Below, in pieces: positions 1,823 through 50,452 of a stretch of DNA of 64,000 nt. Source of the DNA: Naegleria gruberi (lineage: Eukaryota); assembly GCA_000004985.1 (NCBI GenBank), contig GG738916.1, one strand, 5' to 3'. A program made the translations under genes and the position numbers. How positions within the stretch are numbered: the first letter of the stretch is position 1; each line of letters begins with the position of its first letter. Under the pieces are notes generated by a model. The model had not been told where the DNA came from. It saw only the letters and a list, made by a program, of their open reading frames with translations, and made no database searches.

Positions 1823-2259
1823 TGTAAATGTTCATAGAAAATCAAATTAACAGAACTAAAACAGTTGCCAAATCCCATGGATGCAAGCAACCTTGCAAAA
1901 CAGAGATCCTCTAAATCTTTGTTGATTTCTCGAGTAATTCCTTATTTAATTGAAGGTTTTCCTTCGTTATATCAAGGAATACCTCAGCTTGCTTCTTTGA
2001 TTGAATAACAAGTCGACCAATTCTCACTAGTATTGTTTTTGTCCACACTTGTGCTTTCGTTTATGTTCACCGCAATTGATTCTCTTGAGTTATGTCAACA
2101 ACATTATGTTTTATCTTTAAGGTTTGCAAAAACTTTGAAATAGTTTCAAATTGAACTAGTGCTGTAAGGGAAAATTAAAGAACATTAAACTTATAACTCC
2201 ACAAGTAACCTTGTATCTGAAACTCCTTTTTTTTATCCGATTCTTCGATCATCCAGTTC

Positions 2260-3655
2260 ATGAAATTGTTATCTGAAACCATTCGAAAAAAAATGGCTAA
2301 ACTTCAACATCCAACCACCTTGTTGGTGATGGCTGGCTATTTGATCGTATCCTTCTTGTGTAGTTTCTTGTTACTTTCGAATAGTGTCACTTGCATGTAC
2401 GATGATTTTCAACAAAATTCTTGGGATCAAGTTCCTGTTCAAACCAGAGAAATGATTTCGAATATTAATTCTCAACCATCAGCATCTTGGCAAGCCGTTG
2501 AATATCCTCAATTTAAAGGTAAAAGTTTGGCTGACATGACCAATGTAAGTTGTCAAAAAAATAATTTTTAATTCATTAAACAGTACTTTGACAGTTACTT
2601 GGTGCTTTGAACGTCAATGAAAACGATTTGAAAGGAGAGGTCATGGATAAAGATAATAGCACTAACACTCCTTTGAGCGATTCAAGATATTTAACAATTT
2701 TACGTTTGCGAGATTTTCCAACTCAATTCGATGCTAGAGAACAATGGCCACAATGTATTAGATCGATTAAAAATCAAAAGAATTGTGGATCTTGTTGGGC
2801 AGTAAGTTAATCTTGATGAATTTGTGTGGATAATTGGATCATGAATAGTTTTCTGTAAGTTGTTTTAATTGTGTGGTTGGTTGACTTGAATATCTCAATA
2901 GGCAAGTAGTGTTTTGGCTGATAGATTTTGTATTAAGAGTGGAGGAAAGGTTAATGTCGATCTTTCTCCTCAATTCATGGTTTCATGCAGTGGACAAAAC
3001 AATGGATGTAATGGTAAGTAGTTTACAATTTCACCAAAAAAATTGAATATTTGAAAATTAGGTGGTTTCTTTGATGCTACTTGGAGATTTTTAGTTTCTG
3101 TTGGAACAGTATCTGAAGCATGTGTTCCGTATGTTTCCTTTGGAGGCGCAGTCCCTGCATGTAATGTCAAATCTTGTGGTGTTCCAGGTCAAAAGTCACC
3201 ATTTTACAGAGCTGGTTCTGCAAGAAAACTTGAAGGAATGCTTGATATTATGGCAGATTTGAAGGCAAATGGACCTATACAAGTTGCCATGGGCGTATAC
3301 AGAGATTTCTACTCCTATAAGTCTGGTGTTTATCATCATGTGTCTGGAAGATATGTCGGTGGTCATGCTGTCAAAATTGTTGGGTAAGTTTTTGGATATT
3401 TTTCAAAGATTTTAACAGTAGCAGGTGGGGATATGATTCTGCCTCCAAGCTTCCTTATTGGATTTGTGCTAATTCTTGGGGAGAAGGTTTGTTTTTTCAT
3501 TCAGAATTAGAAAATTGTAATTTCAAAATAATTTCTAATAATTTCAATATAATTTTACAAAAGATTGGGGAATTAAAGGATATTTTTGGATCTTGAGAGG
3601 CCGTGGAGAATGTGGAATTGGAAAAATGGTTTGGTCTGGTAAGCCAGCTTTGTAA
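2260..3655 (+). CDS. Cathepsin B-like papain-family (C1) cysteine protease with N-terminal signal-anchor; 6 exons
   Basis: Exons about 2260..2547, 2595..2801, 2902..3013, 3062..3383, 3425..3486, 3564..3655, with GTAAGT/GTTTGT donors and AG acceptors at every junction. Spliced product contains [10 protein letters not shown], the active-site [27 protein letters not shown] and NSWGEDWG...GECGIG. It aligns along its whole length with cathepsin B. The ORF-track pieces 2260..2571 and 2607..2810 are exons 1 and 2. Confidence 0.8.
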
Positions 3656-27881: not shown

Positions 27882-27954
27882 TCCCCCTTAGCTCAGTCGG
27901 TAGAGCGTCAGACTGTTAATCTGCAGGTCGGTGGTTCGAGCCCACCAGGGGGAG
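27882..27954 (+). tRNA. tRNA-Asn (GTT)
   Basis: 73-nt cloverleaf: acceptor TCCCCCT/AGGGGGA, D-arm AGCTCAGTCGGTAGAGC, anticodon stem CAGAC/GTCTG?-like with loop CTGTTAA (anticodon GTT), T-arm GGTGGTTCGAGCCCACC. No encoded CCA. Confidence 0.9.
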
Positions 27955-28117: not shown

Positions 28118-29473
28118 ATGATGAAGATTTACAAAAAAATGTCAGACTTGTTGATGTTTCACAGCCACGATTTAACTGATCAATTACCAACAGAAATGTT
28201 GTTAGAAATATTTTCCTTCCTCCATTCAAAATTCCGCCTCCTAACGCTTTCTCTCGTTTGTAAAAAGTGGAAGTTTCTATCGCTCACCAAAACGAAATTT
28301 AATGTTGAATTTAAAGGTGCAAAATCATCAACATTTATTAATAATGCACTATTTGAAATTGATCGGCAGCAGCTACTTGTAGATAAATTGGAATTTGGTG
28401 AAAACCCAGTTTCTCAAGCAACATTGGAAATTGTTGAAAATTTAAGAACAAGTTTACAATATTTAAAATGTCTTGTTCCTATTGATGAATTGCGGTTTAT
28501 TATTAATCAATTTTCAAATTTAAAATCTCTTGATATCAGAAGATCTAAATTATCTGATAATTCAATTTGTCATGAATTAATGAATAGCAAATTGTCATTA
28601 CCTAATTTAGTAGAATTGAAAATTGAAAATGAATTTAATAATGCAAAAACAGGTGATCATTCAATTAAAGCACAGCTTGTTTCCTTGACGATTGATGGTC
28701 CTAAAACGTATGGACGTATGTTCAAAATTAGGAAACCAGTTGTTGCTAATTTAGAATATCCAAATTTGAAAAAATTGGAACTAATTGACGTTGTTATTGA
28801 AAGTAGAACCTTGCCAATCGGTTTGAAATCACTTGCATTGATTGGATGCGATGTGAATTTCATAGAATTTGAAAGAGTTTCTGAAAGTTTAGAAAAATTA
28901 GAAATTAACCTTGTTACTACTGATGATGTTAATTTTTTACAAAAATCTAATTTAAAGAATTTAAAGAAATTAAAGATTACTAATCAGGATTTAACATTTT
29001 GGGAGAAATTAGAGAAGGTTTATCAAGATGAGTGGAAAGCTTTTACTTTAACAAGTTTTACCTTTGATAGAAATTATTCCAAAACGGTAAAAAAATTATG
29101 TAACTTGGATCTGTTAACAAGTTTAGACATTAGCAATGGCAAAATTTCATCCAATGATGTTATTGATCTTCTTAATGAATGTGAAATGAAAAATTTAACA
29201 AAATTGAAAGCTCAAAATTGTTCACTTTCTCAAGAAGTAATTCCAATTATAGAGAAAATGAAATCATTGAAATATTTGGACTTGAGTTTAAATTCATCAA
29301 TGAAAGATTCTGAAAGAGAGATTATTTGTGGAATGGAAATTGATTATATTGATTGTGGTGGAAAAAACTTCGATGAAATGAAAGAAACTAATGTTGAATT
29401 TTTAGATTCACTTTCGAATATTTCAATTTTTGAACCTAGAAAGAGCATTGAAATTTTGGAAACCAAAAATTAA
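28118..29473 (+). CDS. F-box / LRR protein
   Basis: 451-aa ORF. LPTEMLLEIFSFLHSKFRLLTLSLVCKKWKFLSL is a canonical F-box. It is followed by LRR-like repeats (LKSLDIRRSKL, LVELKIENE, LKKLELIDV, LKYLDLSLN). Confidence 0.6.
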   Translation: MMKIYKKMSDLLMFHSHDLTDQLPTEMLLEIFSFLHSKFRLLTLSLVCKKWKFLSLTKTKFNVEFKGAKSSTFINNALFEIDRQQLLVDKLEFGENPVSQATLEIVENLRTSLQYLKCLVPIDELRFIINQFSNLKSLDIRRSKLSDNSICHELMNSKLSLPNLVELKIENEFNNAKTGDHSIKAQLVSLTIDGPKTYGRMFKIRKPVVANLEYPNLKKLELIDVVIESRTLPIGLKSLALIGCDVNFIEFERVSESLEKLEINLVTTDDVNFLQKSNLKNLKKLKITNQDLTFWEKLEKVYQDEWKAFTLTSFTFDRNYSKTVKKLCNLDLLTSLDISNGKISSNDVIDLLNECEMKNLTKLKAQNCSLSQEVIPIIEKMKSLKYLDLSLNSSMKDSEREIICGMEIDYIDCGGKNFDEMKETNVEFLDSLSNISIFEPRKSIEILETKN

Positions 29474-29626
29474 TTTGATATTGATAAGAAATTCAGTTTA
29501 TTGATTAAGGAAATTCATGGAATTACAAACAGACACAATCAATTCAAATCAAGGAAATATTTTTCCTATTCAGTAGAATGTTCAATAGTTTCCAATAGGA
29601 AAAGTTCAGAAATTCACTCGACAAGA

Positions 29627-31216
29627 ATGATTCCATTCACAGAAAACTTACACTGGAACGAAGAAATTACATTTAATTCATTGATTTCTGAAATTTCATG
29701 TGACTATTGCATTCAAATTTCACTCATACGTTTCGATTTGGATTCAATGACAGGTACACTTTCCAGAAGGGAATTTCTTAAATGTAAATGTCCAGTATTC
29801 GATTCAAGCTTTCAATTATACCAAGGAGATTTAAATTTGCATTTGGACTCGGATATTTACCTAAATGTTGAGTTTCAAAATCATGGTTTTAATATCAAAT
29901 ATGAATTGGACAGGCCTATTGAACGACCATTTTTAGAGACTTTTGATATGGAAACAGGAATTGACTTGAGCGATTCCTCATTACTTGTTCCATTCCTTCG
30001 AAGAATTTCGTTTGAAAATCAATGGGTTATTTATGAATCTAGAAAATTAATTTCACAATGGGAAAAACCAGAAATTCATGAAATTGTAATATTACTCAGT
30101 GGAAATATTGGATTATTTGTAAAATCATTAATTATTCAATTATTGGAGCAAGTAGATCATGGTTTATTAACAAGTTTGTTACCATTTCTCATTCATTGTG
30201 TCAAATTTGATTCAGTGAATGGTGTACTAGTTGAATATTTATTGAAGTTATCGGTGAAATCAAAATCTATTGGAAATCAATTGTTTTGGCTTTTAAAAAC
30301 AGAATCAATTTATCATCAAGTGTGTAAATTAACGATTTCAAAATATTTGAAAATGATAGATAATGATGATATTGAAATTATTAGAAACCAATGTTTATTT
30401 TTCGATTCTATTGAGGAACGTAAAACATTCGAATTGAACTATCAAGTATTAATGCCTTTTACCATGTCCAAAATTAAAACTATTCACAAATTTATCTATC
30501 CTGAAACCAAGATTCAAAATCCACAACTTCACTTGGAGCTTGACAATGGAACATTCCTTGAATTGATTTACTATTCAAATTCTCCTGATATTTATTCAAC
30601 TTTTGCAATCAATAATTTTATAAATATTATTGGAAGAGATGTAAATAACACTACTATTGGACATTTTGTAATTGGATATAGGAGAGGATTTGTGATCATT
30701 CCAGATTCATTGAAACTTGTCCAAATTAATGAAACTGGTTTTCAAATATTTAGTGAACTTTGCAAAAACCAAAAAGCTCAAACATTTGCAGAGAATTTCA
30801 CAACAAGTTTAATATTAGAAATGTTTATAGCAGTATACTTTAATTCCAATTCTATTGATGAATTTTACATTAATGAAGAAGGTGGCATAATGTTGAAACT
30901 GTATTCTCTTTCATACACGAAAGAATTCGCATCTAAAAGAAACCAGAATAAGTTTGATGGATGGCTTACAAAATATCATGATGATTTCATTGAAAAGTTA
31001 AAGAATTTGATTCAAAAATTGGTGGACTATTTGAAGAAAACTGGATTGGCTTTTGGATTTTTTACTGCATTCACTCTTCCATCTCAATCTTGTGGATTTA
31101 GTAATCAGATTCATTTACAATACTTTACAAAATTTTTGAATGAAGATGTGAATATTGTGAGCGAGAAAATTCTACCAACATTTTTCTCCTCAGATCACTA
31201 TTCTAAAACCAACTAA
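29627..31216 (+). CDS. PI3K/PI4K-family-like protein (C2-like + helical accessory + degenerate catalytic domain; probable pseudokinase)
   Basis: Track ORF 29501..31216 starts on TTG; the first ATG is 29627. The central region resembles the PIK helical domain (LLEQVDHGLLTSLLPFLIHCVKFD...IGNQLFWLLKTESIY). The C-terminal region aligns with the PI3K catalytic fold (GFVIIPDSLKLVQI; SLILEMFIAVYFNSNSIDEFYINEEGGIMLKLYSLSY). The GDDLRQD, DRHxxN and DFG motifs are absent. Confidence 0.4.
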   Translation: MIPFTENLHWNEEITFNSLISEISCDYCIQISLIRFDLDSMTGTLSRREFLKCKCPVFDSSFQLYQGDLNLHLDSDIYLNVEFQNHGFNIKYELDRPIERPFLETFDMETGIDLSDSSLLVPFLRRISFENQWVIYESRKLISQWEKPEIHEIVILLSGNIGLFVKSLIIQLLEQVDHGLLTSLLPFLIHCVKFDSVNGVLVEYLLKLSVKSKSIGNQLFWLLKTESIYHQVCKLTISKYLKMIDNDDIEIIRNQCLFFDSIEERKTFELNYQVLMPFTMSKIKTIHKFIYPETKIQNPQLHLELDNGTFLELIYYSNSPDIYSTFAINNFINIIGRDVNNTTIGHFVIGYRRGFVIIPDSLKLVQINETGFQIFSELCKNQKAQTFAENFTTSLILEMFIAVYFNSNSIDEFYINEEGGIMLKLYSLSYTKEFASKRNQNKFDGWLTKYHDDFIEKLKNLIQKLVDYLKKTGLAFGFFTAFTLPSQSCGFSNQIHLQYFTKFLNEDVNIVSEKILPTFFSSDHYSKTN

Positions 31217-31368
31217 ACCCACGTATTAGTAGTAACACAACAAATGAATATTCTTTACAAAAAGAACTTTGAACATTGGAATCAAAACGTCAAATCACTC
31301 ATCACAAAACATTTCATGAAATTTGATTTTTCTTCCATTTTGCAATCTGATTTCCTGTATGTAAAAAA

Positions 31369-32967
31369 ATGTTATCTACATCTAGTTCTTCATTGCCCCT
31401 CAACCAATTAACCTCTCGTATTGGTCACAGTGGTATCTTTCATAAGGATCAGGTCTACCTTTTCGGAGGCTTTGTCAATTCCAACACTCTAGACAAACCT
31501 CTTGTTTATGTAAATGATCTGATTCAGGTGGATGTTTCTACTAGAAAGTGGGTAAACAAGACAACACACAATATCGGACCAAGTGCTCGTAACTTCCACT
31601 CATCATGTCTTTTGAAAGGAAAAGAAAATGATGATCGTAGTGGTGATGGTGCTGAGAGATGATTATTTTTGGCGGGAAATCAAATGGTTTTCATAATGAC
31701 GTTTGGTCGTATCGATTTGATACTTCTGAGTGGAGATTATTGGAACCTAGTAGTGGTGTTAGTGGTGTTAGTGGTGGTAATCAGATGATTAGTCCACGTT
31801 ATGGTCAATCGGCAACTATTTATGGTGATTATTTGGTTGTGTTTGGTGGTTATGATAACAATAGTTTCACATCGAATGAATTGTTTATTTTCAATTTGGA
31901 GAGTAGAGAATGGAAATTGATAGAATTGAGTGTTGAAATTAAGGGAAGATATTATCATGCTAGTGTTTTGGATGAAGAAACTGGTGATTGGTATATTTTG
32001 GGTGGTAAATCAGCTACTAATCTTGTTAAGGATTTTGTAAAGATTAAATTGTCTACTCTGGATGTGGATAAGGCTACTTGCCAATCGGAGGTATTAATTT
32101 CTGAACTTGATGGCTTTGCTCCAAGATTTGGTCATTCATTGGTGTTGGAAAAATCAGAAAATGGTAAAAGACTTTACTCCATTGGTGGTTGTAATAATAA
32201 GGTTGACCATTTGGATTGTATCTATATTGATTTAAATAACATCAAGAATGGTTGGGATGTAACTTATACTCATTCTCTTTCCCACACTTTCAAAAGCAAA
32301 GATGTTGGACCCGTATTTCATGCAAATGTTCCATTCCAAGTGATCAATGAAGATGATAGTATTGCTATGAATTACTTTGTATTTGGTGGTACTTATCAAA
32401 AGACTGAGGATTCTAAAATTCAAGAGACCAGCCAACAAACAGATAAGATTGAAAAGAAGCAGAAAAAGAAACAAGCTGGTGAGCCATCATTTAATATTGA
32501 AGTATTTGATAATGTGATGAATGATGACATTTTCAGATTGGTTCTCTCATTCATGACAATTTCAGATTTGTGTAAATTAGAGTTGGTCTCTAAGAAATTG
32601 AGAATTTGCAAGCTCACCTCAGAGGATCAATACTGGAAGGATTATTACTATCAAAGGATTAATTTATATTTGGAAGCAAGCAAAACTTATAACTATAATT
32701 ACAACAAGATAACTAGAGCTTATGAAACTAATTATCAATATTCTGAGATCTATACTTCATACCTCAAATTTACTAGCAACTATAAGAGACGTTTGATTGA
32801 AGTTATTGGAGAATGCATGTCAAAAGCTGACAGAGATCACCACAAGAGAACCAGTTATATTGAAGGTTTGTCACAATGTGGAAGTGACATCTACGTTCCT
32901 AAAGAAGAAATTCTCAAGTACAAGTTGAAAAATGCTTCAACAAGTGCTTTTAAAATTGTTCAAGTTG
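31369..32967 (+). CDS. Kelch-repeat protein with C-terminal-side F-box-like motif; frame broken at about 31655; possibly continuous with downstream Rho GTPase exons
   Basis: ORFs 31369..31662 and 31659..32987 overlap by 4 nt in different frames, inside one Kelch blade (..GPSARNFHSSCLLKGKENDDRSGDGAER / MIIFGGKSNGFHNDVWSYRFDTSEWR). Multiple Kelch blades (LFGGF, IFGG, VFGGY, ILGG, IGGC, VFGGT) are followed by NDDIFRLVLSFMTISDLCKLELVSKKLRI, an F-box-like motif. The ORF has no stop before a GTGAGT donor at 32968. The in-frame TGA at 32985 lies inside that intron. Confidence 0.55.
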
Positions 32968-33034
32968 GTGAGTTGTCATTTATTTGAGAAAATACTTGAA
33001 TACTAATTAATCAATTGAAATTTCAAATAATAAG

Positions 33035-33729
33035 GTGATGGAGCTGTGGGTAAAACATGTCTTTGGATATCTCTAACCACCAACGCCTTTCCACATGAAT
33101 ATGTGCCAACCGTTTTTGATAATTACAGTCAAAATTATGTCTGTGATGGAACAACTTTCAGTCTTGGATTGTGGGATACTGCAGGACCAGAAGGTAAGTA
33201 ATTTTAAAATTGTATTTTGGATTGACCATTCAAAAGATTATGATAGGTAAGTTTAAGAAGAGTTATTAATTTTATAAATTATGCAACTAATGAAATATTA
33301 ACGGATTTAAACATATACAGATTACGTCCACTTTCCTATCCCCAAACTGATTTATTCTTTTTGAGTTTCAGTTGTAGTTCAGAATCATCTATGGATAATG
33401 TCGTTTCAAAATGGATTCCTGAAATAAGACATCATTGCCCAACTACTGCAGTTGCACTTGTTTGTACCAAGATTGATTTTAGAGATGATCCAGTCCTTAG
33501 TAGAGAATTACTTGTCAAAAAACATAAGAAGATTCATAGTTTTGAACAGGGAGAATTACTTGCCAAAAAGATGGGATGTCTCACTTACTTGGAAACAAGT
33601 GCTCTTACAGGTGCTGGAATTAAGGATCTGAACGAAGTGATGGTCAGATCCATCTCTATGTGGAATGATCCTTCATTCAAGCAAATTGTGAAAAAGAATC
33701 GTGAAAAGAAGAATTGTAACATGCAATAA
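33035..33729 (+). CDS. Atypical Rho/Rac-family small GTPase (exons 2-4, including a 10-nt micro-exon); exon 1 = ..AFKIVQVG ending at 32967
   Basis: Exons are 33035..33193 ([31 protein letters not shown]...LWDTAGPE), 33237..33246 (attatgatag, encoding DYD+), and 33321..33729 ([11 protein letters not shown]...[20 protein letters not shown]...[12 protein letters not shown]...KKNCNMQ). All introns are GTAAGT..AG (43, 74 and 67 nt). The protein ends in a CaaX box, CNMQ. Pro replaces the catalytic Gln61 (DTAGPE where DTAGQE is expected). Exon 1 (32942..32967 region) supplies KIVQVG in the same frame as the Kelch ORF. Confidence 0.8.
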
Positions 33730-34358
33730 ATACATGATTTCTATTAGGATGTGACCACTTGGATTGGAATAAATCCATGACGATTGTCACAAACGAGCAT
33801 AGATATCTAAACAAGTTTAAAAGTCTTTTCTAACAGCAACAACTCTCTGGTTCTTGATTTTGAATAGTCCTCTTGATTGACAGCTTAATTACAATATTGG
33901 ATGAATCAATGAATTCAACTTTAATTCCTTTTAGAACCATACTCTTGATCATCATATATTTAAATTGTCCTTGCTGATGAATCAATTTCTGGTTCTTCCG
34001 AAAACAAAATCTTCTAACCAACAACCTCGTTTATTCCTTACTCAATTTCCTCATTTTTTATTCAATAAAAAAGCAATTAGAAAGGGCGCGGAATCTTTCC
34101 ATCCGTTAAGAAATTCCAAAGAAAATGTGAATACCAACGACCATTCTTTCTTCTTGCCTCGCAATGTACCATTTGGATACCATTAACTGGCCACTTATTA
34201 TTACAAATGTACAATTGCCTTCTCCGAATAATCAACAAGTAGATAGCAAACATTCAGGTGTGCTCTTCAATTATGACCATCTAAATTTACATCTTAATTG
34301 AAAAAAAACAGAACAACAAATTCTCCATCATTTTGAAGAAGAACAGATTATTGATTGT

Positions 34359-36512
34359 ATGGCAAATAGTAATAACGATAGTGATAAAAACAAGACGACA
34401 ACTAAAACAACAGAAAGTCCGAATGGTAATGCTACAAGTCCAAGGATAAAGCAATCTTCTTTGAGTAACATCAATTCGGATGCTACTGGAAAGGAAGAAC
34501 TTCATGTAAGCTTTAACTTGAGTAATATTTCGAGTACGAGTACGAATGGTTTTGGTAATGGTAGTAGGGAGAATTCATTTAGAATTGTTAAACCAAATCA
34601 AAGACTAGGTGATGGCAATGAGGAAATCATTGAATTGGCAGATGCAGTAATATTGCAAAATGATGAGGAAGAATTAATGATTGACGAATCGAGTCCTGAG
34701 AATAGAAATTCAATGGAATGGTCTGGTAGTTTGGCAGAAGATGGCGAACAAGCAGAATTGTTTCGAGAATTGAAACAAGACAGAAAAGAAAGAAAGAATC
34801 AAGAACAGTGGAAATGGTTGTGGAACATGATTAAGGAAACTGTCACTGTATTTCTTCCTTTGGGATTGACAACTTTTGTTGGTGGTATTCAAATAGTATG
34901 TAGTAGAAAGAAAACAATTCATTGTAACAAGTTAAAATAGGTTCAAAAGAAATTTGTAGATAAGAAGAAATGGTTGACTGAGGCAGAATTTATGGAGATT
35001 TATGCTCTTTCTCAAAGCTTACCTGGTGCCATTATTAGTCAAGTAGTATTTTCGATAGCCATGTTAAGACATGGTTTTTGGTCTGGCTTTTTAGCCAATC
35101 TACTCTTTTGTGGACCTGGTTTTATTGCCAATTTGCTTTTTGGTTGGCTGATGGCTGACATTAGTATTGATGATAACTCGCCGAGATGGGTTCTCAACTT
35201 GCAAAACGGTTTGGCTTGTTCAGGTATTGCATTTGCTGTGAGCTCAGCGTTCAGAATGGCCTCAATGTTAAATAAGAGCAAAAGTAGAGCATTTTCATTT
35301 ATATTGGCAGGATTTGTTGCCATGTTGACAATGGTTGCCAAACCAATGTGGATCTTACCAATTCTCATATTTGGAGGTGCTTTTGTTAGTTACTTCTTCT
35401 CCCTCATTTATGATCGTATTATGAGCAGAATAGACAAGTATGAAATTAGAAAGCAAGCTGCTCAAAAGAAGGATAACGAAGAAGACGAGGAAGAAACCTC
35501 GCTGACCATCAAACAAAAGATTATCTTTGTTTACTTATTCTTCAAGAGCTTTTTCAAAAAGCTTCCTGTTGAACCAGCTCAACAAGATAACCAAGAACCT
35601 CAAGCAGAAACCCAAACAGTAGTGGAAGAAACTCAAGAGAAACGAAAACCAAAGGACAAGTTTTCTAAAAATGTTAGAACTCACTCACCTCTTTGGTTGG
35701 GCATTTCCATGCTTTTGATTTTTGCTCTATTATTTGTTGTTTTGATTGTTACCTCAGTAATTTTCGAAACTTACAAAAAGCCAACCATAACAAATGGAGT
35801 AGATGTGTTTAAGGAGACTATAATTATGTCTAATTTTTTCTACAAGTACGGAACATTGATTTTTGGAGGTGGAGTTGGAGGTATTCCTCTTTTGAGAAAT
35901 GAAATGGTTGAACGAAAGTGGGTAACCGAGCAACAGTTCATGAATGGCTTTTCAATTTCTAATGCCCTCGTTGGTCCAAAGCATAGTGTTGCAGCATTCT
36001 ATGGTGCCTGTATTGGTGCCAAGTTTGCTGAAGCATTAGTAAATAGTGGCTCCAATAGAACTATCAATGGAACATATCTGAATGAAACTCTCATTTTTGG
36101 AAATGAAACAAACTCAAACAACTTTACTAATCCGAATCAAATACGTGTGAAACAACGTTCCAGTGCTCTCTATTACATTTTACCGCCACTGTTAGGAGTA
36201 ATTGCAGGTTTACTTTTCCATTTACCTGGATATCTGACAATGGCAGGTTGCCTTCCATTGTGGAGAAAGATTAGAGAAAATAATGTAATCAAATTATCAT
36301 TAATAGGTGTTAATGCAGTTTGTGTAGGATTTGTAGTTTCCAATTCAATCTCTATGTGGATAGACAATGTTGGAACCAGTTCATATCTGGCTGCTGCCAC
36401 AATATTTTGCTTCTTAATGAACTTTTTTGATTTTTCTCCTCCAATAATTGTGATAGCTGGTGCTATTTTATCCATTGTAGCAGGTGAAATTGGCTTTGCA
36501 GTAGGTTGGTAA
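34359..36512 (+). CDS. Chromate-transporter (CHR family, bipartite ChrA-like) membrane protein with N-terminal hydrophilic extension; one intron
   Basis: Exons 34359..34895 and 34941..36512, with a 45-nt intron 34896..34940 (GTATGT...AAATAG, whose AG is the track's stop). This joins the two track ORFs into FLPLGLTTFVGGIQI|VQKKFVDKKKWLTEAEFMEIYALSQSLPGAI, matching CHR motif-1 (FGGG...W.te.eF...A..Q.lPGP). A second CHR half has FGGGVGGIPLLRNEMVERKWVTEQQFMNGFSISNALVGP. About 12 TM helices. Confidence 0.75.
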
Positions 36513-36773: not shown

Positions 36774-39700
36774 ATGTTCTCTAACAAAGATAATGATCCC
36801 TTGGCTGTGATCGATAGACTTTTACCTCGTTCATCAGGTTCTAGAAGTTTGTCCTATCTAAATAGTCAAGAGGAATTTAATTCTAATTTTGATGTTTTAA
36901 TTTCACCACCTCGTTTATCCAACACTATTCGTGAGAAAACCATCGGAAGCAATACTCTCCAATTATTTGATGAGACTACCTCGTATTATGAACTCTTCCC
37001 AATTATTGAAAATAAGAGAAAGAAGAATACATCTGATGATTTATTAAAATTTGGTATTACTTGGGAAAGTTTTGTTAAACCAAAGATTAGCTTTAAGAAT
37101 GCTAATCAACACAACAAGGATTTTGATCGTAGAATTGAAGAACAAAACGGAAAGAATTTGTTAGAAAAGTTTTTAACCATGTTGCAAGAACAATTGAGAT
37201 TGGATCAAATTTCATCCAACAAGTATGGTGTTGCTAGTGGACTTTCTAAACAACAAGTTGCTTGTTTGATTGCTAAACAACTTTATATTGCTAAGAGAAA
37301 GTTTAAAAACACTTTATCTGTTAAGAGTGTTTTCAAAGATTTACAAAATATGGGTATTGGCTTGTCACTTGATCCAAAGACACAAAAGTTGGAACAAATT
37401 GTCAAGGAAGTTCACATTTTGAAAGTTTTGGAACATTTGGAAAAGTTAATGGATTGGATTGACAGATATGCCAAACCAAACTTGGCAGAAGAAGAAGCCA
37501 AAAGATATGGTAAAGTTGAAAGACTTATTATCGGAACTGGTGAATCAAAGAATACTAATACATACTTTTCCACTGGTACAGAAAAAGATAATGATGAATA
37601 TGATGATGAAGCTCTAGTAATTGATGAAAATATTGAATTTGGTTCTGCTGATGATATTACTAATGCAGACCATTTGCATAATCAATTTAGAAATATTAGT
37701 ATCTTCTCTAGATCCCAATTGGAAAATGTTTTAGACCAAACTAATCTATTCTCCTTCACTGCACCAACAGAAAATGTTGAAGAAGAGGAGGAAGAAGAAG
37801 AAGAATCTGTTCTTTCTTCCATGTATACTGTTGATTGGTTGGAAAAGGAAGCCAGAAAGATTTGCAAGACACCAGGTATTGAAAATATTGTTTTGGATAT
37901 TTTACAAAAGAAGGGACAAGATGCTGTTCAATTACAATCTCGCTTATTCGATGCTCTTGGAGAAAATGCTTTCGAATTAATGTCAATTATCATGGAACAT
38001 AAGTCAGAAATTTTGGCTGATTTGTATAGAATGCAAATGGCAGATAATGCTGTTGAAGGTATTAACTCATTCTCTCATGTAAAGATGACAACATCCAAGT
38101 TCAAGGATGCTCAAAAGAAGCTCAAGAAGGAAGGTAGAAAAATTGGTAGAAAGAATCAAACCAAGTTTAACCTTTCAGGAGGAAACTCTGAAAATGAGTT
38201 GAATGAACTCAAATCACTCTATCAAACCTTCAAGAAGGAAAAGGATAGAAATGTTCTCAAGGCTGGTGAAGGAGAATCTAGAGTACTTGTTCTCGGAAGA
38301 GATGTTATTCCAGAGTCCAATAATGAGGCTGATAAAGAAACTCAAGAAAGAGTTATCAGACAACCAACTTATGAAGAACACGTCTTCCCTGCTCCAAAGA
38401 AACGTGAAGATAACACACCACTTGTTCCAATTTCTATATTTGAAGATTGGGCTCAACTTGCATTCAAAGGTTATACTCACCTCAATCGTGTACAATCTGA
38501 TGTTTTCTATTCTGCTTATAAAACTAGTGAAAACATGTTGGTTTGTGCTCCAACAGGTTGCGGTAAGACAAATATTGCAATGATGACAGTTTTGAGAGAA
38601 ATTGGCCAACACTTTAAGGGAGGAAAGATTAGACGTGAAGAATTCAAGATTATCTATATTGCTCCAATGAAAGCTTTGGCAGCTGAAATGGTTGAAAACT
38701 TCTCCAAGAGACTTGCACCACTTGGCATTACAGTAAAAGAAATGACTGGTGATATGCAATTGACAAAGAGAGAAGTACAACAAACTCAAATGATTGTTAC
38801 TACTCCTGAAAAGTGGGACGTAACAACCAGAAAAGCCTCTGATCAAGCTTTAATTCAATTGACTAGATTGATCATTATTGACGAAGTTCACTTGTTGAAT
38901 GAAGACAGAGGTCCAGTTATTGAATCTATTGTTGCTAGAACTTTAAGACAAGTTGAAACAACACAAAGTATGATTCGTTTGGTTGGTTTATCTGCTACTT
39001 TACCAAATTATATGGATGTTGCTAACTTCCTCAGAGTTGATCCTCATTCCGGATTGCACTTCTTTGATGGATCCTATAGACCTGTTCCACTTGAACAAAG
39101 TTTTATTGGTGTCAGTATTAGAAATCCAATTGCTAGAAATAAGGAATACAATCAAATTGCCTTCAATAGAACCTTGAAGAATTTGAAGAGAGAAAAACAA
39201 GTCATGGTTTTCGTTCACTCCAGAAAGGAAACTTCCACTACTGCCAAAGCTTTAATTGATTTGGCAGTTGAAGAAAATGCTCTTGATATGCTCACTGCTG
39301 GAGTTAAAATGAGTGAACATACCAGAAAGTGGGTAACTAAATCATTAGAAAAGTGTCACAATAGAGAATTGAAAGAATTGGTACCAAAAGGTCTCGGTAT
39401 TCACCATGCTGGTTTAGTTAGATCAGACAGAAATCTTGTTGAAAAGCTCTTTTCTGAAGGTATTATTAGAGTTTTATGTTGTACCTCTACACTCGCTTGG
39501 GGTGTCAACTTGCCATCATATTGTTGTATTATTAAGGGTACCGAAGTTTATAATGCTGAAAAGAGTACCATGACTGAACTTGGAATGTTGGATATTATGC
39601 AAATTTTCGGTCGTGCTGGTAGACCTCAATTTGACGTTGAAGGTGAAGGTGTTATTATTACTAGTTATGAAGTTTTACCTCGTTACCTCAACTTGTTAAA

Positions 39701-42700
39701 GAGAAATTTACCAATCGAATCACAAATGACACAAGATTTGGCTAACCACTTGTGTGCTGAAATTGTTTTGGGTACAGTGTCCAATGTCAGAGAAGGTTGT
39801 TTATGGTTGAATTATACTTACCTCTTCTTGAGAATGAGACAAAACCCAATGAATTATGGTATTTTACCTGAGGAAGTCAAGCTCGATCCTTCATTGATTG
39901 GTATGAGAAAGAGTCTTATTGAAAAGGCCTGTAAGATGTTACAAGAAAGCAAGATGATTATCTACGACGAAAGAACTGGTGTTGTTTCTGCAACTGATTT
40001 GGGTCGTATCGCCTCTCACTTCTATATTCACTACGAAACAATTCAATTGTACAATGAAAAGCTCCATCCAAAGATGTCCGAATCTGATGTTCTCCACATA
40101 GTTGCTAGTGCCAGAGAGTTCAAGAATATCAAGGTTAGAGAAGATGAATCTGAAGAACTTGCTGAATTATCAGCCAATGCACCAGTTAAAGTTACAAAGG
40201 GACAAGATGAATTCACTGGAAAGGTAAATTTGTTGATTCAAAGTTACATTTCCCATGTTAAGATTAAGAATTCATCTCTCATTTCCGATTGTGCCTTTAT
40301 TATTCAGAGTGTTGGTAGAATTATTAGAGCAATCTTTGAAATTGCTATCAAGGAACGTTGGTCATCTTTAGTTGACAAACTTTTAACCTTGACAAAATGT
40401 ATGGAAAGAAGACAATGGGTATTTGAACATCCACTCAGACAAATGTCAAAGATTCCAACCTTTGCCTTGCAAAAACTTGAAAACAAGAATTTGACCCTCT
40501 CCAAATTAGTTGAATATGAAGAATCCGAGTTGGATCAAGTATTGAATGTTAGAGGAATGGGTAGAATTATTATGGAACATATTGATAGATTCCCTCACTT
40601 GGATTTGGAAGCTAACGTTCAACCAATTACAAGAAATGTTCTTCGTTTCCAAGTTAAAATCAGACCAAACTTTACTTGGGACAAGAAATTGCACGGAGAA
40701 ACAGAGCCTTGGTGGATTTGGGTTGAAGATGAAAACTCTGAATTCATCTATCACTCTGAGTACTTCTTGTTAAAGCATGATGAATATGAAAAGATGATGA
40801 AAGAATCAAGAGATGACGAAGAAGGACCATGCTATTCTCTCAACTTTGTTGTTCCTTTCAGAGAAGATCCAAGACCTCTCTATTTTATTATTAGAGCAGT
40901 TTCTGACAAGTGGATTAGTGCAGAAGCACAAATTACCGTCAATATTAAGGATATTATTTTACCAGAAGGTTTTGCTCCAAGCACTCCAATTCTCCCATTG
41001 GATCCTCTTCCAATCACCTGCTTGAACAATCCTGAATATGAAAAGTTATATGCTGATAAGGGTATCAAATATTTCAACCCTGTACAAACACAAATTTTCC
41101 ACATGACATACCATACTGATGAAAATATTCTTATTGGTGCACCAACAGGTTCTGGTAAGACACTTGCTGCTGAATTGTGTATCTTTAGATTGTTCAATAC
41201 TAAACCAAATCAAAAGGTTATTTATATTGCTCCTCTTAAGGCCCTTGTTAGAGAAAGACTTGTTGAATGGGAAAAGAAGTTTGTTCAAAAGTTAGGCAAG
41301 AAAATGGTCGAATTAACTGGTGATTTCACTCCTGATGTTAAATTATTGAAGGAAGCTGATATTGTTATTACAACTCCTGAAAAGTGGGACGGTATTTCTC
41401 GTAACTGGCAAAATCGTTCCTATGTCAGAGATGTTGGTTTGATTGTCATGGACGAAATTCACTTGCTTGGCAGTGGAAGAGGTGCTATTTTAGAAGTCAT
41501 TACATCTCGTATGAGATATATTTCTTGGAACACTCAAACTCACATTCGTTTGATGGGTCTCAGTACGAACATGGCTAATGCTACTGACTTGGCCGATTGG
41601 TTGGGTGTTGGACAAAGAGGTTTGTTCAACTTTAAGAGTTCTGTAAGACCTGTTCCTTTACAAATTAGTATTTCTGGATTCAGTGGTAAGAACTATTGTC
41701 CAAGAATGAATTCTATGAATAAGCCAGCTTATCAAGCAATTTTGAGACACTCCAACAACAAACCTTGTTTGATTTTCGTTTCTTCCAGAAGACAAACCAG
41801 ATTGACAGCAATGGATTTGATTGGTTATTGTTCTGCTGATGAAAATCCTCACAGATTCTTGAGAATGGACCAAAATGAAGTTATTAGTGCTTTGGAACTT
41901 GCTCGTGACACTCACCTCAAACAATTCTTACAATATGGTATTGGTATTCACCATGCTGGTCTTACTCCATCAGACAAAAAACTCGTTGAAGAACTTTTCC
42001 ACTCTGGTAAGATTCAAGTCCTTGTTGCTACTAGTACTTTGGCTTGGGGTGTCAACTTGCCAGCATACTTTGTCATTATCAAAGGTACTGAATTTTTTGA
42101 ACCATCCACAAAGAGATATGAAGATTATCCACTTGTTGATGTATTACAGATGGCTGGTCGTTCTGGTCGTCCAGGTTTCGATACTGAAGGTAGAGTTTTC
42201 ATCATGGTTCACGATATTAAGAAGAATTTCTACAAGAGATTCCTCTATGAACCATTCCCAATTGAATCAAGTTTGCATACTCAATTGCATGACCACATCA
42301 ATGCGGAAATTGTTTCAGGAACTATCAAGACCAAACAAGATTGTTTGGACTATTTAACTTGGACTTTCATGTTCCGTCGTCTTGTCCAAAATCCATGCTA
42401 TTATGGTATTGAAGATTTGTCCTATGAAGGATTGAACAAGTGGTTATCTACTAAGATTACCAGTATTATTGATGACTTGGAATATGCTGGACTTGTTAAA
42501 GCTATTGATTTGAATCTTGATAAGAAGAAACGTTGGGAAGTTATGGCTTCTCAAACACAATCATCAACCTTTGGTACTATGACAGCTGAGAAGGAAAAGG
42601 CTGAAAAGGAAATCCAAAAGGCCAAGGGAATTTATTTGGAACCAACAGCAACTGGTATTATTGCCAGTTTCTATTATTTGTCATATAGAACTGCTTCTCA

Positions 42701-43661
42701 TTTCAACAGACTCATCAAGGCTGATTCTAACGTTAACTACTTGTTAGAACTTCTCTGTGAAGCTAAGGAATTTGCTGAAATCCCTGTCAGACATAATGAA
42801 GACAAGTTGAATAAGGAATTGAGTGAAGTTGTTCCTCTTGGAGTTTACATGCACGACTATGAATCTCCACACATTAAGTGTTATTTACTTTTACAAGCTC
42901 ACTTTGAAAGAGTCAAGCTTCCAATTGTCGACTACATTACTGATACTAGAACAATTTTAGATTCTACCATCCGTATTTCTCAATCCTATATTGATATCTG
43001 TGCCGAAAAGGGATACTTGCAACCAACAATTAACATGATGCACATTTTGCAAATGATCATGCAAGCCAGATGGGCAACAGATTCAACCCTCTATCAATTG
43101 TTCAGTAATTTGCAATGTCCACGTGAAAATACTGAAAGTTCTTCAGAAGATATTCACAACTTTATTCAAAACTTAGCTCAAAAGGAAAATGTCACTGGTC
43201 TCAAGCAATTGTTGGATGTTAAATATCAACAAGGCGAGTCTGCTTTGCAAAAATTGATTTCCAAATATTTGAGAAAGAACAACTTAGTATCCAATCTCAT
43301 GAAGATTGTTGAAGAATTCCCATATTTAACTGTAAAGATTGACAAGGTTACTCACGATGAAGAAGATCACCAACTTGAAGTTTCTGTCAACATTGAAAGA
43401 TTAAGCAAACCAAAAGAACAAGCTTACACACCAATGTATACCAAACAAAAGGATGAAGGATTCTGGTTGATTGTTTCTAACCCTCAAAACAATGAATTAT
43501 TAGCTCTCAAGAGAGTAAGAGCAAACAGAAAATTCAATCGTACTGAAGTTTATCTTCCAGTCTCTGAAAATGATAAGGAATTGGAAGCTATTGTTGTTCC
43601 TGATTGCTATCTTGGTTTAGATGTTTCTTCTAAATTCTTGTGTAAGATTCAAACTAAATAA
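36774..43661 (+). CDS. ASCC3: ASCC3/Slh1-type tandem Ski2-like RNA/DNA helicase (two DExH helicase-Sec63 cassettes)
   Basis: 2295-aa single ORF. Cassette 1 has CAPTGCGKT, DEVHLLNEDRGPVIESIVART, LSATLPNYMDVANFL, VFVHSRKET and HHAGL. Cassette 2 has FNPVQTQIFH..GAPTGSGKT, IAPLKALVRER, TTPEKWDGISRNWQNR, DEIHLLGSGRG, IFVSSRRQTRLTA, ATSTLAWGVNLPA and KRFLYEPFPIESSL. The C-terminal KDEGFWLIVSNPQNNELLALKRV is closer to ASCC3 than to Brr2. Confidence 0.9.
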   Translation: MFSNKDNDPLAVIDRLLPRSSGSRSLSYLNSQEEFNSNFDVLISPPRLSNTIREKTIGSNTLQLFDETTSYYELFPIIENKRKKNTSDDLLKFGITWESFVKPKISFKNANQHNKDFDRRIEEQNGKNLLEKFLTMLQEQLRLDQISSNKYGVASGLSKQQVACLIAKQLYIAKRKFKNTLSVKSVFKDLQNMGIGLSLDPKTQKLEQIVKEVHILKVLEHLEKLMDWIDRYAKPNLAEEEAKRYGKVERLIIGTGESKNTNTYFSTGTEKDNDEYDDEALVIDENIEFGSADDITNADHLHNQFRNISIFSRSQLENVLDQTNLFSFTAPTENVEEEEEEEEESVLSSMYTVDWLEKEARKICKTPGIENIVLDILQKKGQDAVQLQSRLFDALGENAFELMSIIMEHKSEILADLYRMQMADNAVEGINSFSHVKMTTSKFKDAQKKLKKEGRKIGRKNQTKFNLSGGNSENELNELKSLYQTFKKEKDRNVLKAGEGESRVLVLGRDVIPESNNEADKETQERVIRQPTYEEHVFPAPKKREDNTPLVPISIFEDWAQLAFKGYTHLNRVQSDVFYSAYKTSENMLVCAPTGCGKTNIAMMTVLREIGQHFKGGKIRREEFKIIYIAPMKALAAEMVENFSKRLAPLGITVKEMTGDMQLTKREVQQTQMIVTTPEKWDVTTRKASDQALIQLTRLIIIDEVHLLNEDRGPVIESIVARTLRQVETTQSMIRLVGLSATLPNYMDVANFLRVDPHSGLHFFDGSYRPVPLEQSFIGVSIRNPIARNKEYNQIAFNRTLKNLKREKQVMVFVHSRKETSTTAKALIDLAVEENALDMLTAGVKMSEHTRKWVTKSLEKCHNRELKELVPKGLGIHHAGLVRSDRNLVEKLFSEGIIRVLCCTSTLAWGVNLPSYCCIIKGTEVYNAEKSTMTELGMLDIMQIFGRAGRPQFDVEGEGVIITSYEVLPRYLNLLKRNLPIESQMTQDLANHLCAEIVLGTVSNVREGCLWLNYTYLFLRMRQNPMNYGILPEEVKLDPSLIGMRKSLIEKACKMLQESKMIIYDERTGVVSATDLGRIASHFYIHYETIQLYNEKLHPKMSESDVLHIVASAREFKNIKVREDESEELAELSANAPVKVTKGQDEFTGKVNLLIQSYISHVKIKNSSLISDCAFIIQSVGRIIRAIFEIAIKERWSSLVDKLLTLTKCMERRQWVFEHPLRQMSKIPTFALQKLENKNLTLSKLVEYEESELDQVLNVRGMGRIIMEHIDRFPHLDLEANVQPITRNVLRFQVKIRPNFTWDKKLHGETEPWWIWVEDENSEFIYHSEYFLLKHDEYEKMMKESRDDEEGPCYSLNFVVPFREDPRPLYFIIRAVSDKWISAEAQITVNIKDIILPEGFAPSTPILPLDPLPITCLNNPEYEKLYADKGIKYFNPVQTQIFHMTYHTDENILIGAPTGSGKTLAAELCIFRLFNTKPNQKVIYIAPLKALVRERLVEWEKKFVQKLGKKMVELTGDFTPDVKLLKEADIVITTPEKWDGISRNWQNRSYVRDVGLIVMDEIHLLGSGRGAILEVITSRMRYISWNTQTHIRLMGLSTNMANATDLADWLGVGQRGLFNFKSSVRPVPLQISISGFSGKNYCPRMNSMNKPAYQAILRHSNNKPCLIFVSSRRQTRLTAMDLIGYCSADENPHRFLRMDQNEVISALELARDTHLKQFLQYGIGIHHAGLTPSDKKLVEELFHSGKIQVLVATSTLAWGVNLPAYFVIIKGTEFFEPSTKRYEDYPLVDVLQMAGRSGRPGFDTEGRVFIMVHDIKKNFYKRFLYEPFPIESSLHTQLHDHINAEIVSGTIKTKQDCLDYLTWTFMFRRLVQNPCYYGIEDLSYEGLNKWLSTKITSIIDDLEYAGLVKAIDLNLDKKKRWEVMASQTQSSTFGTMTAEKEKAEKEIQKAKGIYLEPTATGIIASFYYLSYRTASHFNRLIKADSNVNYLLELLCEAKEFAEIPVRHNEDKLNKELSEVVPLGVYMHDYESPHIKCYLLLQAHFERVKLPIVDYITDTRTILDSTIRISQSYIDICAEKGYLQPTINMMHILQMIMQARWATDSTLYQLFSNLQCPRENTESSSEDIHNFIQNLAQKENVTGLKQLLDVKYQQGESALQKLISKYLRKNNLVSNLMKIVEEFPYLTVKIDKVTHDEEDHQLEVSVNIERLSKPKEQAYTPMYTKQKDEGFWLIVSNPQNNELLALKRVRANRKFNRTEVYLPVSENDKELEAIVVPDCYLGLDVSSKFLCKIQTK

Positions 43662-44167: not shown

Positions 44168-44238
44168 TGCGTCGACCGGGAATTGAACCCGGGTCACGGC
44201 GATGGCAACGCCGTATTCTACCACTAAACCATCGACGC
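44168..44238 (-). tRNA. tRNA-Gly (GCC), canonical copy
   Basis: Minus strand GCGTCGATGGTTTAGTGGTAGAATACGGCGTTGCCATCGCCGTGACCCGGGTTCAATTCCCGGTCGACGCA. Anticodon loop TTGCCAT. Intact T-stem CCGGG/CCCGG. Confidence 0.9.
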
Positions 44239-49950: not shown

Positions 49951-50452
49951 TCATTAGTTATTCATTAACAACATTTTATGATAGATATCAAGAAGCGTCG
50001 ATGGTTTAGTGGTAGAATACGGCGTTGCCATCGCCGTGAATAGGGTTCAATTCCCGGTCGACGCATAAATTATTTTCCATTTCAACATTCTTTCATTTTC
50101 TCTTTTTCAACTTTATACCACTAAAACTAGACATTTATTACTATCTCTACTCCAAAAATCACATCTTTAAAATCAATATTCATCGAGAAAGAAACCTCGG
50201 TTTTTACCCCATTTTTTCTTTCATTTTATTAAAAGATAAATTTGGTGAACTTTGTAAAACTCAAAAAAAATGTCTGAAATCGATAAACAACCAAACCTTC
50301 AATCAAAAACTTCTACCCATCCTCTTTTTGCATTCCTTCGTGATTATTCCATCATAGGTGGTGCTCATCTCTGCTCTGTAACTTTCACTGCTCCTCTACA
50401 TAGAGCAATAGATGTTATTACAAATTTCGAGAAAGATCACAATATTCTGGAA
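49951..50452. repeat. Right arm of about 500-bp inverted repeat (carries variant tRNA-Gly and promoter/exon 1 of carrier gene)
   Basis: Reverse complement of 43772..44283. Confidence 0.85.
49995..50065 (+). tRNA. tRNA-Gly (GCC), variant/possibly impaired copy
   Basis: Identical to the 44168..44238 copy except the T-stem 5' strand. ATAGG replaces CCGGG (GTGAATAGGGTTCAATTCCCGG), weakening 2 of 5 T-stem pairs. Confidence 0.75.

Follow-up and report, generated by a model that had tools for sequence, protein, structure and literature searches.

One gene for Kelch, F-box, and a Gln61-less Rac-like domain in Naegleria gruberi: a sequence-based case

"The window" considered here is a 64,000-nucleotide (nt) stretch of Naegleria gruberi DNA (GenBank assembly GCA_000004985.1, contig GG738916.1). 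Its plus-strand segment 31369..33729 is, with good confidence, best explained as a single gene that by descent encodes a polypeptide of about 724 amino acids (aa), in which a Kelch β-propeller, an F-box, a linker, a Rac-like domain, and a CaaX box follow one another, and which would act through the mechanism proposed below. The initial annotation, made from the sequence alone, had left two options: one transcript for Kelch repeats, F-box, and Rho GTPase, or a Rho gene with an undetected 5' exon. The former is supported by collinear relatives, by the open reading frames (ORFs) of four homologous sequences (L001-L004), and by assembled Stenamoeba transcripts; the window locus thus appears to be a Kelch–F-box–Rho fusion by descent.

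One gene or two

The gene model comes from direct inspection of region 31200..34400, a list of its ORFs, and script-made splicing of the proposed exons. The frame-0 ORF that begins at ATG 31659 stays open until TGA 32985..32987 and, as the initial annotation had it, meets no stop ahead of the GTGAGT donor at 32968..32973. This donor lies one base into a GGT codon (intron 1 is in phase 1), immediately after ...STSAFKIVQV and the first base of Gly; the acceptor AG at 33033-34 completes the Gly codon, and the splice 32967^33035 is in phase, joining ...AFKIVQVG to DGAVGKTC. The spliced junction product carries NASTSAFKIVQVG directly ahead of the residues encoded by exon 2. Two earlier proposals are thereby borne out: the end of the Kelch ORF supplies the missing β-strand of a Rho/Rac GTPase (AFKIVQVG pairs with AIKCVVVG of Rac1), and the exon starting at 33035 continues in the matching phase, (G)DGAVGKTC. 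The spliced coding sequence 31659..33729 comprises 1887 nt, is in frame, and terminates with CNMQ and a stop. Its introns measure 67, 43, and 74 nt, with donors GTGAGT, GTAAGT, and GTAAGT and AG at every acceptor. Splicing also agrees with the 10-nt micro-exon proposed at 33237..33246 between the 43- and 74-nt introns: without ATTATGATAG, switch II could not be read. The features of the gene, each with its basis, are as follows.

31369..31656, plus strand: N-terminal coding segment of 96 codons, with blade 1 of the Kelch propeller and the first part of blade 2 (ORF 31369..31662, in another frame than the remaining gene)
31656..31660, plus strand: 2-nt frame break inside GAGAGATGA (sequence reading)
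31659..32405, plus strand: blades 2-6 of the Kelch β-propeller (Pfam; similarity to LZTR1)
32517..32636, plus strand: F-box-like motif MNDDIFRLVLSFMTISDLCKLELVSKKLRICKLTSEDQYW (Pfam, sub-threshold; family profile)
32637..32951, plus strand: family-specific linker of ~105 aa from F-box to GTPase (family alignment; AlphaFold2 model of a homolog)
32952..32967, plus strand: end of exon 1, Rho β-strand 1, KIVQV and the first base of Gly (pairs with Rac1 residues 5-10)
32968..33034, plus strand: intron 1, 67 nt, GTGAGT...AAG, phase 1 (sequence and script)
33035..33193, plus strand: exon 2, with P-loop GDGAVGKT, switch, and DTAGPE (splicing; Rac1 alignment)
33194..33236, plus strand: intron 2, 43 nt, GTAAGT...AAG (script)
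33237..33246, plus strand: 10-nt micro-exon ATTATGATAG, with (D)YD(R) of switch II (script; the same in L002)
33247..33320, plus strand: intron 3, 74 nt, GTAAGT...CAG (script)
33321..33729, plus strand: last exon, with the remaining switch II, TKID (G4), Rho insert, TSAL (G5), polybasic stretch, CaaX, and TAA (splicing; Rac1 alignment)

Could the locus nevertheless hold two genes, a Kelch/F-box gene ending near 32987 and a Rho gene whose ATG exon has been missed? Read-through of intron 1 leads to the stop at TGA 32985..32987, and a Kelch/F-box-only product of intron retention is conceivable; an in-frame Met also lies upstream of KIVQVG, 45 codons 5' of its Lys and not 48 as first counted. Yet there is no stop ahead of the donor, and the in-phase junction rebuilds β-strand 1 exactly. 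Moreover, the P-loop exon depends on a coding exon 5' of it, because the 67-nt intron 1 contains no ATG and exon 2 no in-frame ATG. Protein-level conservation is seen in the linker directly ahead of the Rho domain, and the relatives are fused.

These relatives carry most of the argument. Once its frame is corrected, the 724-aa protein can be aligned over its whole length, in the same order, with Kelch–F-box–Rho proteins of 620-770 aa. Full-length proteins with the order Kelch, F-box, Rho occur in Naegleria fowleri (P0001, 731 aa, 98% coverage in a search with the spliced product), Naegleria lovaniensis (P0002, P0004, P0008), Willaertia magna (P0019, P0025, P0053), Acrasis kona (P0049), N. gruberi itself (P0045), and the amoebozoan Balamuthia mandrillaris (P0059); in the transcriptome of Stenamoeba stenopodia, P0041 and P0132 are complete ORFs of the same order on single assembled transcripts. 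The arrangement, which the initial annotation had proposed to look for in related genomes, is thus found in Heterolobosea and Amoebozoa, with the same order in all full-length relatives. The amoebozoan source that it had assumed for the window itself is wrong: N. gruberi NEG-M is a heterolobosean. The word index of the homolog search was patchy, and the absence of XP_002670347.1, the database entry for this gene, from its results is uninformative.

The junction can also be read without an intron. In the Naegleria-like metagenome contigs L001 (22..1239) and L002 (298..2022), one ORF runs through Kelch, F-box, and linker into GDGAVGKT...GLW; in L003 (N. lovaniensis) and L004 (N. fowleri), everything from the start codon up to and including GDGATGKT-S falls into exon 1, ahead of the first intron. 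A separate Rho gene is very unlikely because all four sequences have F-box, linker, and P-loop in one and the same ORF; together with the invariant domain order and the Stenamoeba transcripts, this leaves the two-gene alternative highly improbable.

Contig L002, an ENA metagenome contig near-identical to the N. gruberi paralog XP_002672362.1, has a micro-exon identical to ATTATGATAG at the equivalent place. There, at about 2020..2270, switch II (DTAGPE / DYD / RLRPL) is split over three micro-exons in a row, which are 20, 10, and 13 nt long. Introns in N. fowleri and N. lovaniensis are placed differently, after GKT-S and after DYDRL-R.

Related architectures occur as well: Rho–Kelch–F-box in Mastigella and Pelomyxa and Rho–BTB–Kelch–BTB in Arcella. 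The latter, amoebozoan-type proteins (P0028, P0034, P0039, and P0047, from Arcella and environmental sequences) resemble LZTR1 with an N-terminal Rac; their Gln61 is replaced (DTAGPE, DTGGPE, DTAGRE), and all but P0047 (FLCHL) have CxxQ at the C-terminus. A query for LZTR1 orthology with the Arcella Rho–BTB–Kelch proteins gave results dominated by Rac matches. In a neighbor-joining tree of the Rho domains, built with no bootstrap, the heterolobosean C-terminal-Rho forms group with Balamuthia; a common origin of the C-terminal-Rho forms of Heterolobosea and Balamuthia is weakly indicated.

The Rac-like domain and the Kelch propeller

The conceptual Rho domain aligns with residues 3-176 of human Rac1 (E = 1.8e-63) with a single one-residue gap. 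Its G1 P-loop, GDGAVGKT, is identical to Rac1 residues 10-17; switch I (YVPTVFDNY) has Thr35 and a Rho-type effector loop; and G4 (TKID), G5 (TSAL), and the Rho-specific insert are all present. G3 departs from the canonical motif: it reads DTAGPE in place of DTAGQE, with the Pro codon CCA (33187..33189) aligned to Gln61 of Rac1. In Ras/Rho GTPases, the catalytic water is held in place by Gln61, the loss of which lowers GTP hydrolysis. Among the proteins retrieved by the homolog search, none of the 20 Kelch-linked Rho domains has Gln at position 61 (Pro in 14, Glu in 3, and Gly, Arg, and Asp in one each), as compared with 85/88 of the other Rho matches. As judged from these sequences, Gln61 loss is a trait of the Kelch–F-box–Rho family, which in Heterolobosea and Amoebozoa never keeps this residue. 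Because Pro replaces Gln61, as other residues or Pro do across Kelch-linked Rho domains, the domain in the window is an atypical Rho rather than a canonical, cycling one.

The domain closes with a CaaX box, CNMQ (33715..33726), preceded by KKNREKKN. A CaaX box in which X is Gln is a farnesyltransferase substrate, and a CxxQ ending is conserved in the family (CYLQ, CLFQ, CFLQ, CKVQ, and CLLQ elsewhere). The Q61P substitution and the CNMQ box, both pointed out at the outset, therefore hold up, each as a conserved feature of a family and not a peculiarity of one gene.

What might the propeller recognize? The whole protein has six xFGG/xLGG/xIGG motifs, that is, six blades. The profile scan that had been suggested for the conceptual fusion finds Kelch (PF24681 at 1.2e-42, PF24981 at 5.8e-32, several Kelch families passing their cutoffs) and Ras (1.8e-38), with the F-box below threshold. 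By sequence, the closest solved natural relative of the window Kelch is LZTR1 (4.1e-19), followed among natural proteins by KLHDC3 (1.5e-10). The fold was approached through a homolog, N. lovaniensis P0002, modeled with AlphaFold2 from a 23-sequence family alignment: at a mean predicted local distance difference test (pLDDT) score of 80.3 and a predicted template modeling (pTM) score of 0.51, the model has a confident propeller (pLDDT ~90), a structured F-box/linker region, and a Rac-like domain. A Foldseek search of the PDB with this propeller also ranks the LZTR1 Kelch first (E = 1.2e-19, TMt 0.77), with KLHDC2 and FBXO42 next, and with the GTPase domain it returns Rac1 (TMt about 0.9, 52% identity). 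In the matched LZTR1 entries, the propeller is complexed with a GDP-loaded small GTPase (MRAS, KRAS, or RIT1). Since LZTR1 is the closest solved Kelch relative, the propeller of the window type could, by analogy, bind a small GTPase, perhaps its own Rho domain.

The frame break, the paralogs, and the prior record

If the frame-0 ORF opens with ATG 31659, why is this not the N-terminus? Because blade 1 (MLSTSSSSLPLNQLTSRIGHSG...ARNFHSSCLLKGKENDDRSGDGAE) has its codons upstream, at 31369..31656, in frame 1. TGA 31660..31662 brings frame 1 to an end, and frame 0 does not open before 31656. The product of 31369..31656 lines up with every family member at the N-terminus (M..LP..R.GHS...YLFGG...ARNFHS) and is identical to the start of the published model of this gene (Table S8 of Herman et al., 2021); a homolog search with the 97-aa N-terminus gave no matches, again with the patchy word index. 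Removal of AG from GAGAGATG yields A-E-M-I-I-F-G-G, which fits the EMIxFGG conserved in the family.

An intron bridging the break was considered and rejected: only GT..AG spans of 8, 14, 17, and 20 nt are available, as against 43-74 nt for the real introns, and none has the GTAAGT or GTGAGT donors of the latter. The published model bridges the break as ...DDRKMIIFGG, dropping 17 nt (31640..31656; Herman et al., 2021, PMC8296547). The paralog P0003/P0144 is contiguous at this site (KSNDCSDEMVIFGG). The break at 31656..31660 is one of three things: a mistake of sequencing or assembly, an allele, or an inactivating mutation of very recent date.

The last two options lead to another account, rather unlikely on balance: in this strain or haplotype the fused Kelch–F-box–Rac gene, although inherited as such, would have become a pseudogene only very recently, or would be an allele that is crippled. 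Two extra nucleotides (GA) inserted in a low-complexity loop would shift the frame; blade 1 would no longer be translated together with the rest, and a start at ATG 31659 would produce an incomplete propeller. The break itself, the lack of a plausible intron across it, and the unbroken paralog all fit such decay, as does the company the gene keeps: the closest paralog, XP_002681858.1, is marked as a putative pseudogene, and birth-and-death evolution of divergent Rab-like GTPase clades is reported for Naegleria, in the same work (Herman et al., 2021). Against decay, 96 codons upstream and 628 downstream of the break are free of stops, and the three canonical splice-site pairs, all G-motifs, and the family-invariant residues are intact; the pseudogene column of Table S8 is blank for XP_002670347.1 (Herman et al., 2021). 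A 2-nt error in the GAGAGA / GGTGATGGTG repeat could be an assembly artifact or one haplotype of a heterozygous site.

The initial annotation implied that an F-box/Kelch/Rho architecture was new. It is not: gene and architecture are already on record because a published, curated table lists both. In their re-annotation of Ras-superfamily genes in Naegleria (Additional files 4 and 10), Herman et al. (2021; BMC Biol 19:142, PMC8296547) give, in Table S8, a "Rac" entry, XP_002670347.1, asterisked as manually corrected, with BTB and F-box as additional domains. The sequence in the table (MLSTSSSSLPLNQLTSRIGHSG...KGKENDDRKMIIFGGKSNG...) is identical to the window translation over the 400 residues compared, except at the bridged frame break, where it has RK and the window RSGDGAE. 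"Kelch, F-box" is the label of other Rac entries for N. gruberi, and the supplement, in the portions available, describes F-box/Kelch architectures with a GTPase and proposes GTPase-dependent ubiquitination. Those portions make no mention of Gln61 loss, the micro-exon, the frame break, amoebozoan relatives, or the similarity to LZTR1; full-text literature searches turned up no functional study of Kelch–F-box–Rho proteins. The present findings therefore mostly confirm existing curation, to which they make modest additions: family-wide Gln61 loss, amoebozoan relatives, the junction within a single ORF, a conserved micro-exon, the frame break, and the LZTR1 lead.

Four ORFs of the window exactly match NEG-M proteins XP_002670341, -343, -349, and -350 on a 245,038-bp scaffold; P0003 (XP_002681858.1), the N. 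gruberi match at 77-79% identity, is thus a paralog on another scaffold, and the closest one. P0144 (XP_002668324.1) is a near-identical partial copy of it on a 7.5-kb contig. The RefSeq model of P0003 is mis-spliced: its C-terminus follows the wrong frame of the linker (...EPVILRVCHNVEVISTFLKKKFSSTI) and matches window ORF 32797..32928. Micro-exons and a 2-nt frame break evidently defeat automatic models: the reference model had to be corrected by hand, and the closest paralog is still mis-spliced.

The window gene has for neighbors F-box/LRR, PI3K-like, chromate-transporter, and Brr2 genes. Directly upstream, 28118..29473 and 29501..31216 hold an F-box/LRR protein (F-box-like, 1.3e-09) and an ORF for which Pfam gives PI3K C2 and PIK helical domains but no kinase domain; they may belong to a single gene, or represent a relative of PI3K that lacks the kinase. 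Downstream are a chromate-transporter-family ORF (34974..36512, plus strand) and an intron-less Brr2/SNRNP200-type helicase of 2295 aa (36774..43661, plus strand), an exact match to XP_002670349.1. Genes for tRNA-Asn(GTT) (27882..27954, plus strand) and tRNA-Gly(GCC) (44168..44238, minus strand, and 49995..50065, plus strand) lie among the protein-coding genes. The P0001 and P0002 loci of N. fowleri and N. lovaniensis, which have IQGAP-like and Macro/WWE genes as neighbors, show no synteny with the window locus; for this reason, P0001 and P0002 may be paralogs and not orthologs of the window gene.

The F-box, the proposed function, and known systems

How good is the F-box? In the window protein alone, the Pfam F-box model PF00646 scores 17.1 bits (E = 0.0052), below its cutoff of 20.5 bits. 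The F-box that the initial annotation placed in the Kelch ORF has its support at the level of the family, and there solidly, as far as comparison can tell: 9/15 aligned members match PF00646 and 8/15 match PF12937 (best E 2.9e-15), and all eight PDB matches of a family profile of the F-box/linker region (A2) are F-box proteins aligned over the core helices (positions 11-50), including FBXO3 (5e-4) and β-TrCP1 (2.7e-3) along with FBXW11, FBXW7, FBXL5, and FBXL2. The Leu-Pro conserved at the start of F-box helix 1 is absent, however: the window has M-N-D-D and the Naegleria/Willaertia clade L-N-D-D, whereas amoebozoan members retain L-P-D-E (canonical L-P-x-E). In the linker, the motifs NYK..LIE.....AEK and EEIL are conserved across Heterolobosea (alignment A2), and the P0002 model has helices, a β-hairpin, and a long helix at residues 495-523 (pLDDT ~75-90). 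A homolog search with the F-box/linker profile returned five Willaertia fragments.

The sub-threshold score and the missing Leu-Pro, kept by the amoebozoan members within LPxE, lend some weight to an alternative in which the fusion protein is made but its F-box-like segment has lost Skp1 binding. The product would then be a membrane-anchored atypical Rho on a Kelch scaffold, its helical region a structural linker only, and not a receptor for a ubiquitin ligase. This alternative is improbable: the family profile matches only F-box proteins in the PDB, and over their core helices; eight or nine members of 15 pass the Pfam F-box models; and the motif at 32517..32636 differs at one residue of 40 between P0144 and the window, while overall identity is 77-79%.

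F-box proteins bind Skp1. The most likely function, inferred from the domains, is that of a membrane-anchored substrate receptor of a Skp1/cullin-1/F-box (SCF) ubiquitin ligase in which the Gln61-less Rac domain is a targeting or regulatory module. The F-box would dock the protein onto Skp1/cullin-1, making it an SCF substrate receptor, and the propeller, whose closest solved relative, LZTR1, binds RAS-family GTPases, would bind the substrate. With Pro at the position of Gln61, the Rho domain would hydrolyze GTP slowly or not at all; farnesylation at CNMQ, together with the basic stretch, would bring this domain to a membrane. The Rho domain would thus be a module for targeting, or a nucleotide-state switch, rather than a cycling signaling GTPase.

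Several points weigh against this picture. At the window locus, the fusion is read from sequence and comparison; the transcripts that carry it are from Stenamoeba. Because of the frame break, the full 724-aa protein is not translatable from the assembled sequence. The F-box of the window protein is sub-threshold and the Naegleria clade has L/M-N-D-D for L-P-x-E, which makes Skp1 binding uncertain. With a pTM of 0.51, the P0002 model leaves the arrangement of the domains relative to one another undefined. A "GTP-locked and active" state does not follow automatically from the loss of Gln61: Pro61 is unusual, and Ras Q61P reportedly (Der et al., 1986) has lowered GTPase activity but is non-transforming.

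A bolder version of the receptor model can be drawn, although taken jointly its parts are unlikely to hold. Kelch–F-box–Rho proteins would be an old class of GTPase-gated cullin-1 receptors, common to Heterolobosea and Amoebozoa, in which (i) the LZTR1-type propeller would dock its own Gln61-less Rho in cis; (ii) the nucleotide state or the membrane attachment of the Rho domain would open or close the substrate site; and (iii) the loss of Gln61 (to P, G, E, D, or R) in every Kelch-linked Rho would mark a timer GTPase turned into a static or ligand-like module. The accessible portions of the Herman et al. (2021) supplement do not put forward any of these points. If the mechanism is true, the state of a small GTPase, or its location at a membrane, would be tied directly to SCF-type ubiquitylation, in parallel to RhoBTB and LZTR1 on the cullin-3 side, and this would help to explain the very large and fast-changing Rho families of amoeboid protists.

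How does the protein compare with known systems? The nearest is the Naegleria multidomain Rac list itself, which includes this very gene but labels it "BTB, F-box" where Kelch is found here (Herman et al., 2021): Pfam gives no BTB match in the window protein at E ≤ 0.1, whereas Kelch is strong. RhoBTB is similar in that an atypical Rho is joined covalently to an adaptor module of a cullin-RING ligase, and the role ascribed to its GTPase is regulation or targeting instead of cycling (review PMC4931677). The differences are several: in RhoBTB, the Rho domain is N-terminal (C-terminal in the window protein), the adaptor is a tandem pair of BTB domains for cullin-3 (an F-box for cullin-1), there is no Kelch propeller, and a CaaX box is present only in RhoBTB3 (CNMQ in the window protein). 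True RhoBTB genes are also listed for Naegleria (Herman et al., 2021, PMC8296547). The window protein is thus, by analogy, an analog of RhoBTB and not a member; it would be the cullin-1-side counterpart of a cullin-3 system.

LZTR1, a Kelch propeller followed by two BTB-BACK modules, is a cullin-3 adaptor for RAS, MRAS, and RIT1. Its Kelch domain is closest to the window propeller by sequence and, for P0002, by fold; unlike LZTR1, however, the window protein has no BTB or BACK domain, and its GTPase is present in cis and is of the Rho type. In architecture, LZTR1 looks nearer to the Arcella Rho–BTB–Kelch–BTB proteins (P0028, P0034) than to the window gene. Finally, FBXO42, which is among both the sequence and the fold matches, and the plant FBK proteins combine an F-box and a Kelch propeller in one chain, as the window protein does; but their F-box precedes the propeller and they have no GTPase, whereas here the order is Kelch, F-box, Rho.

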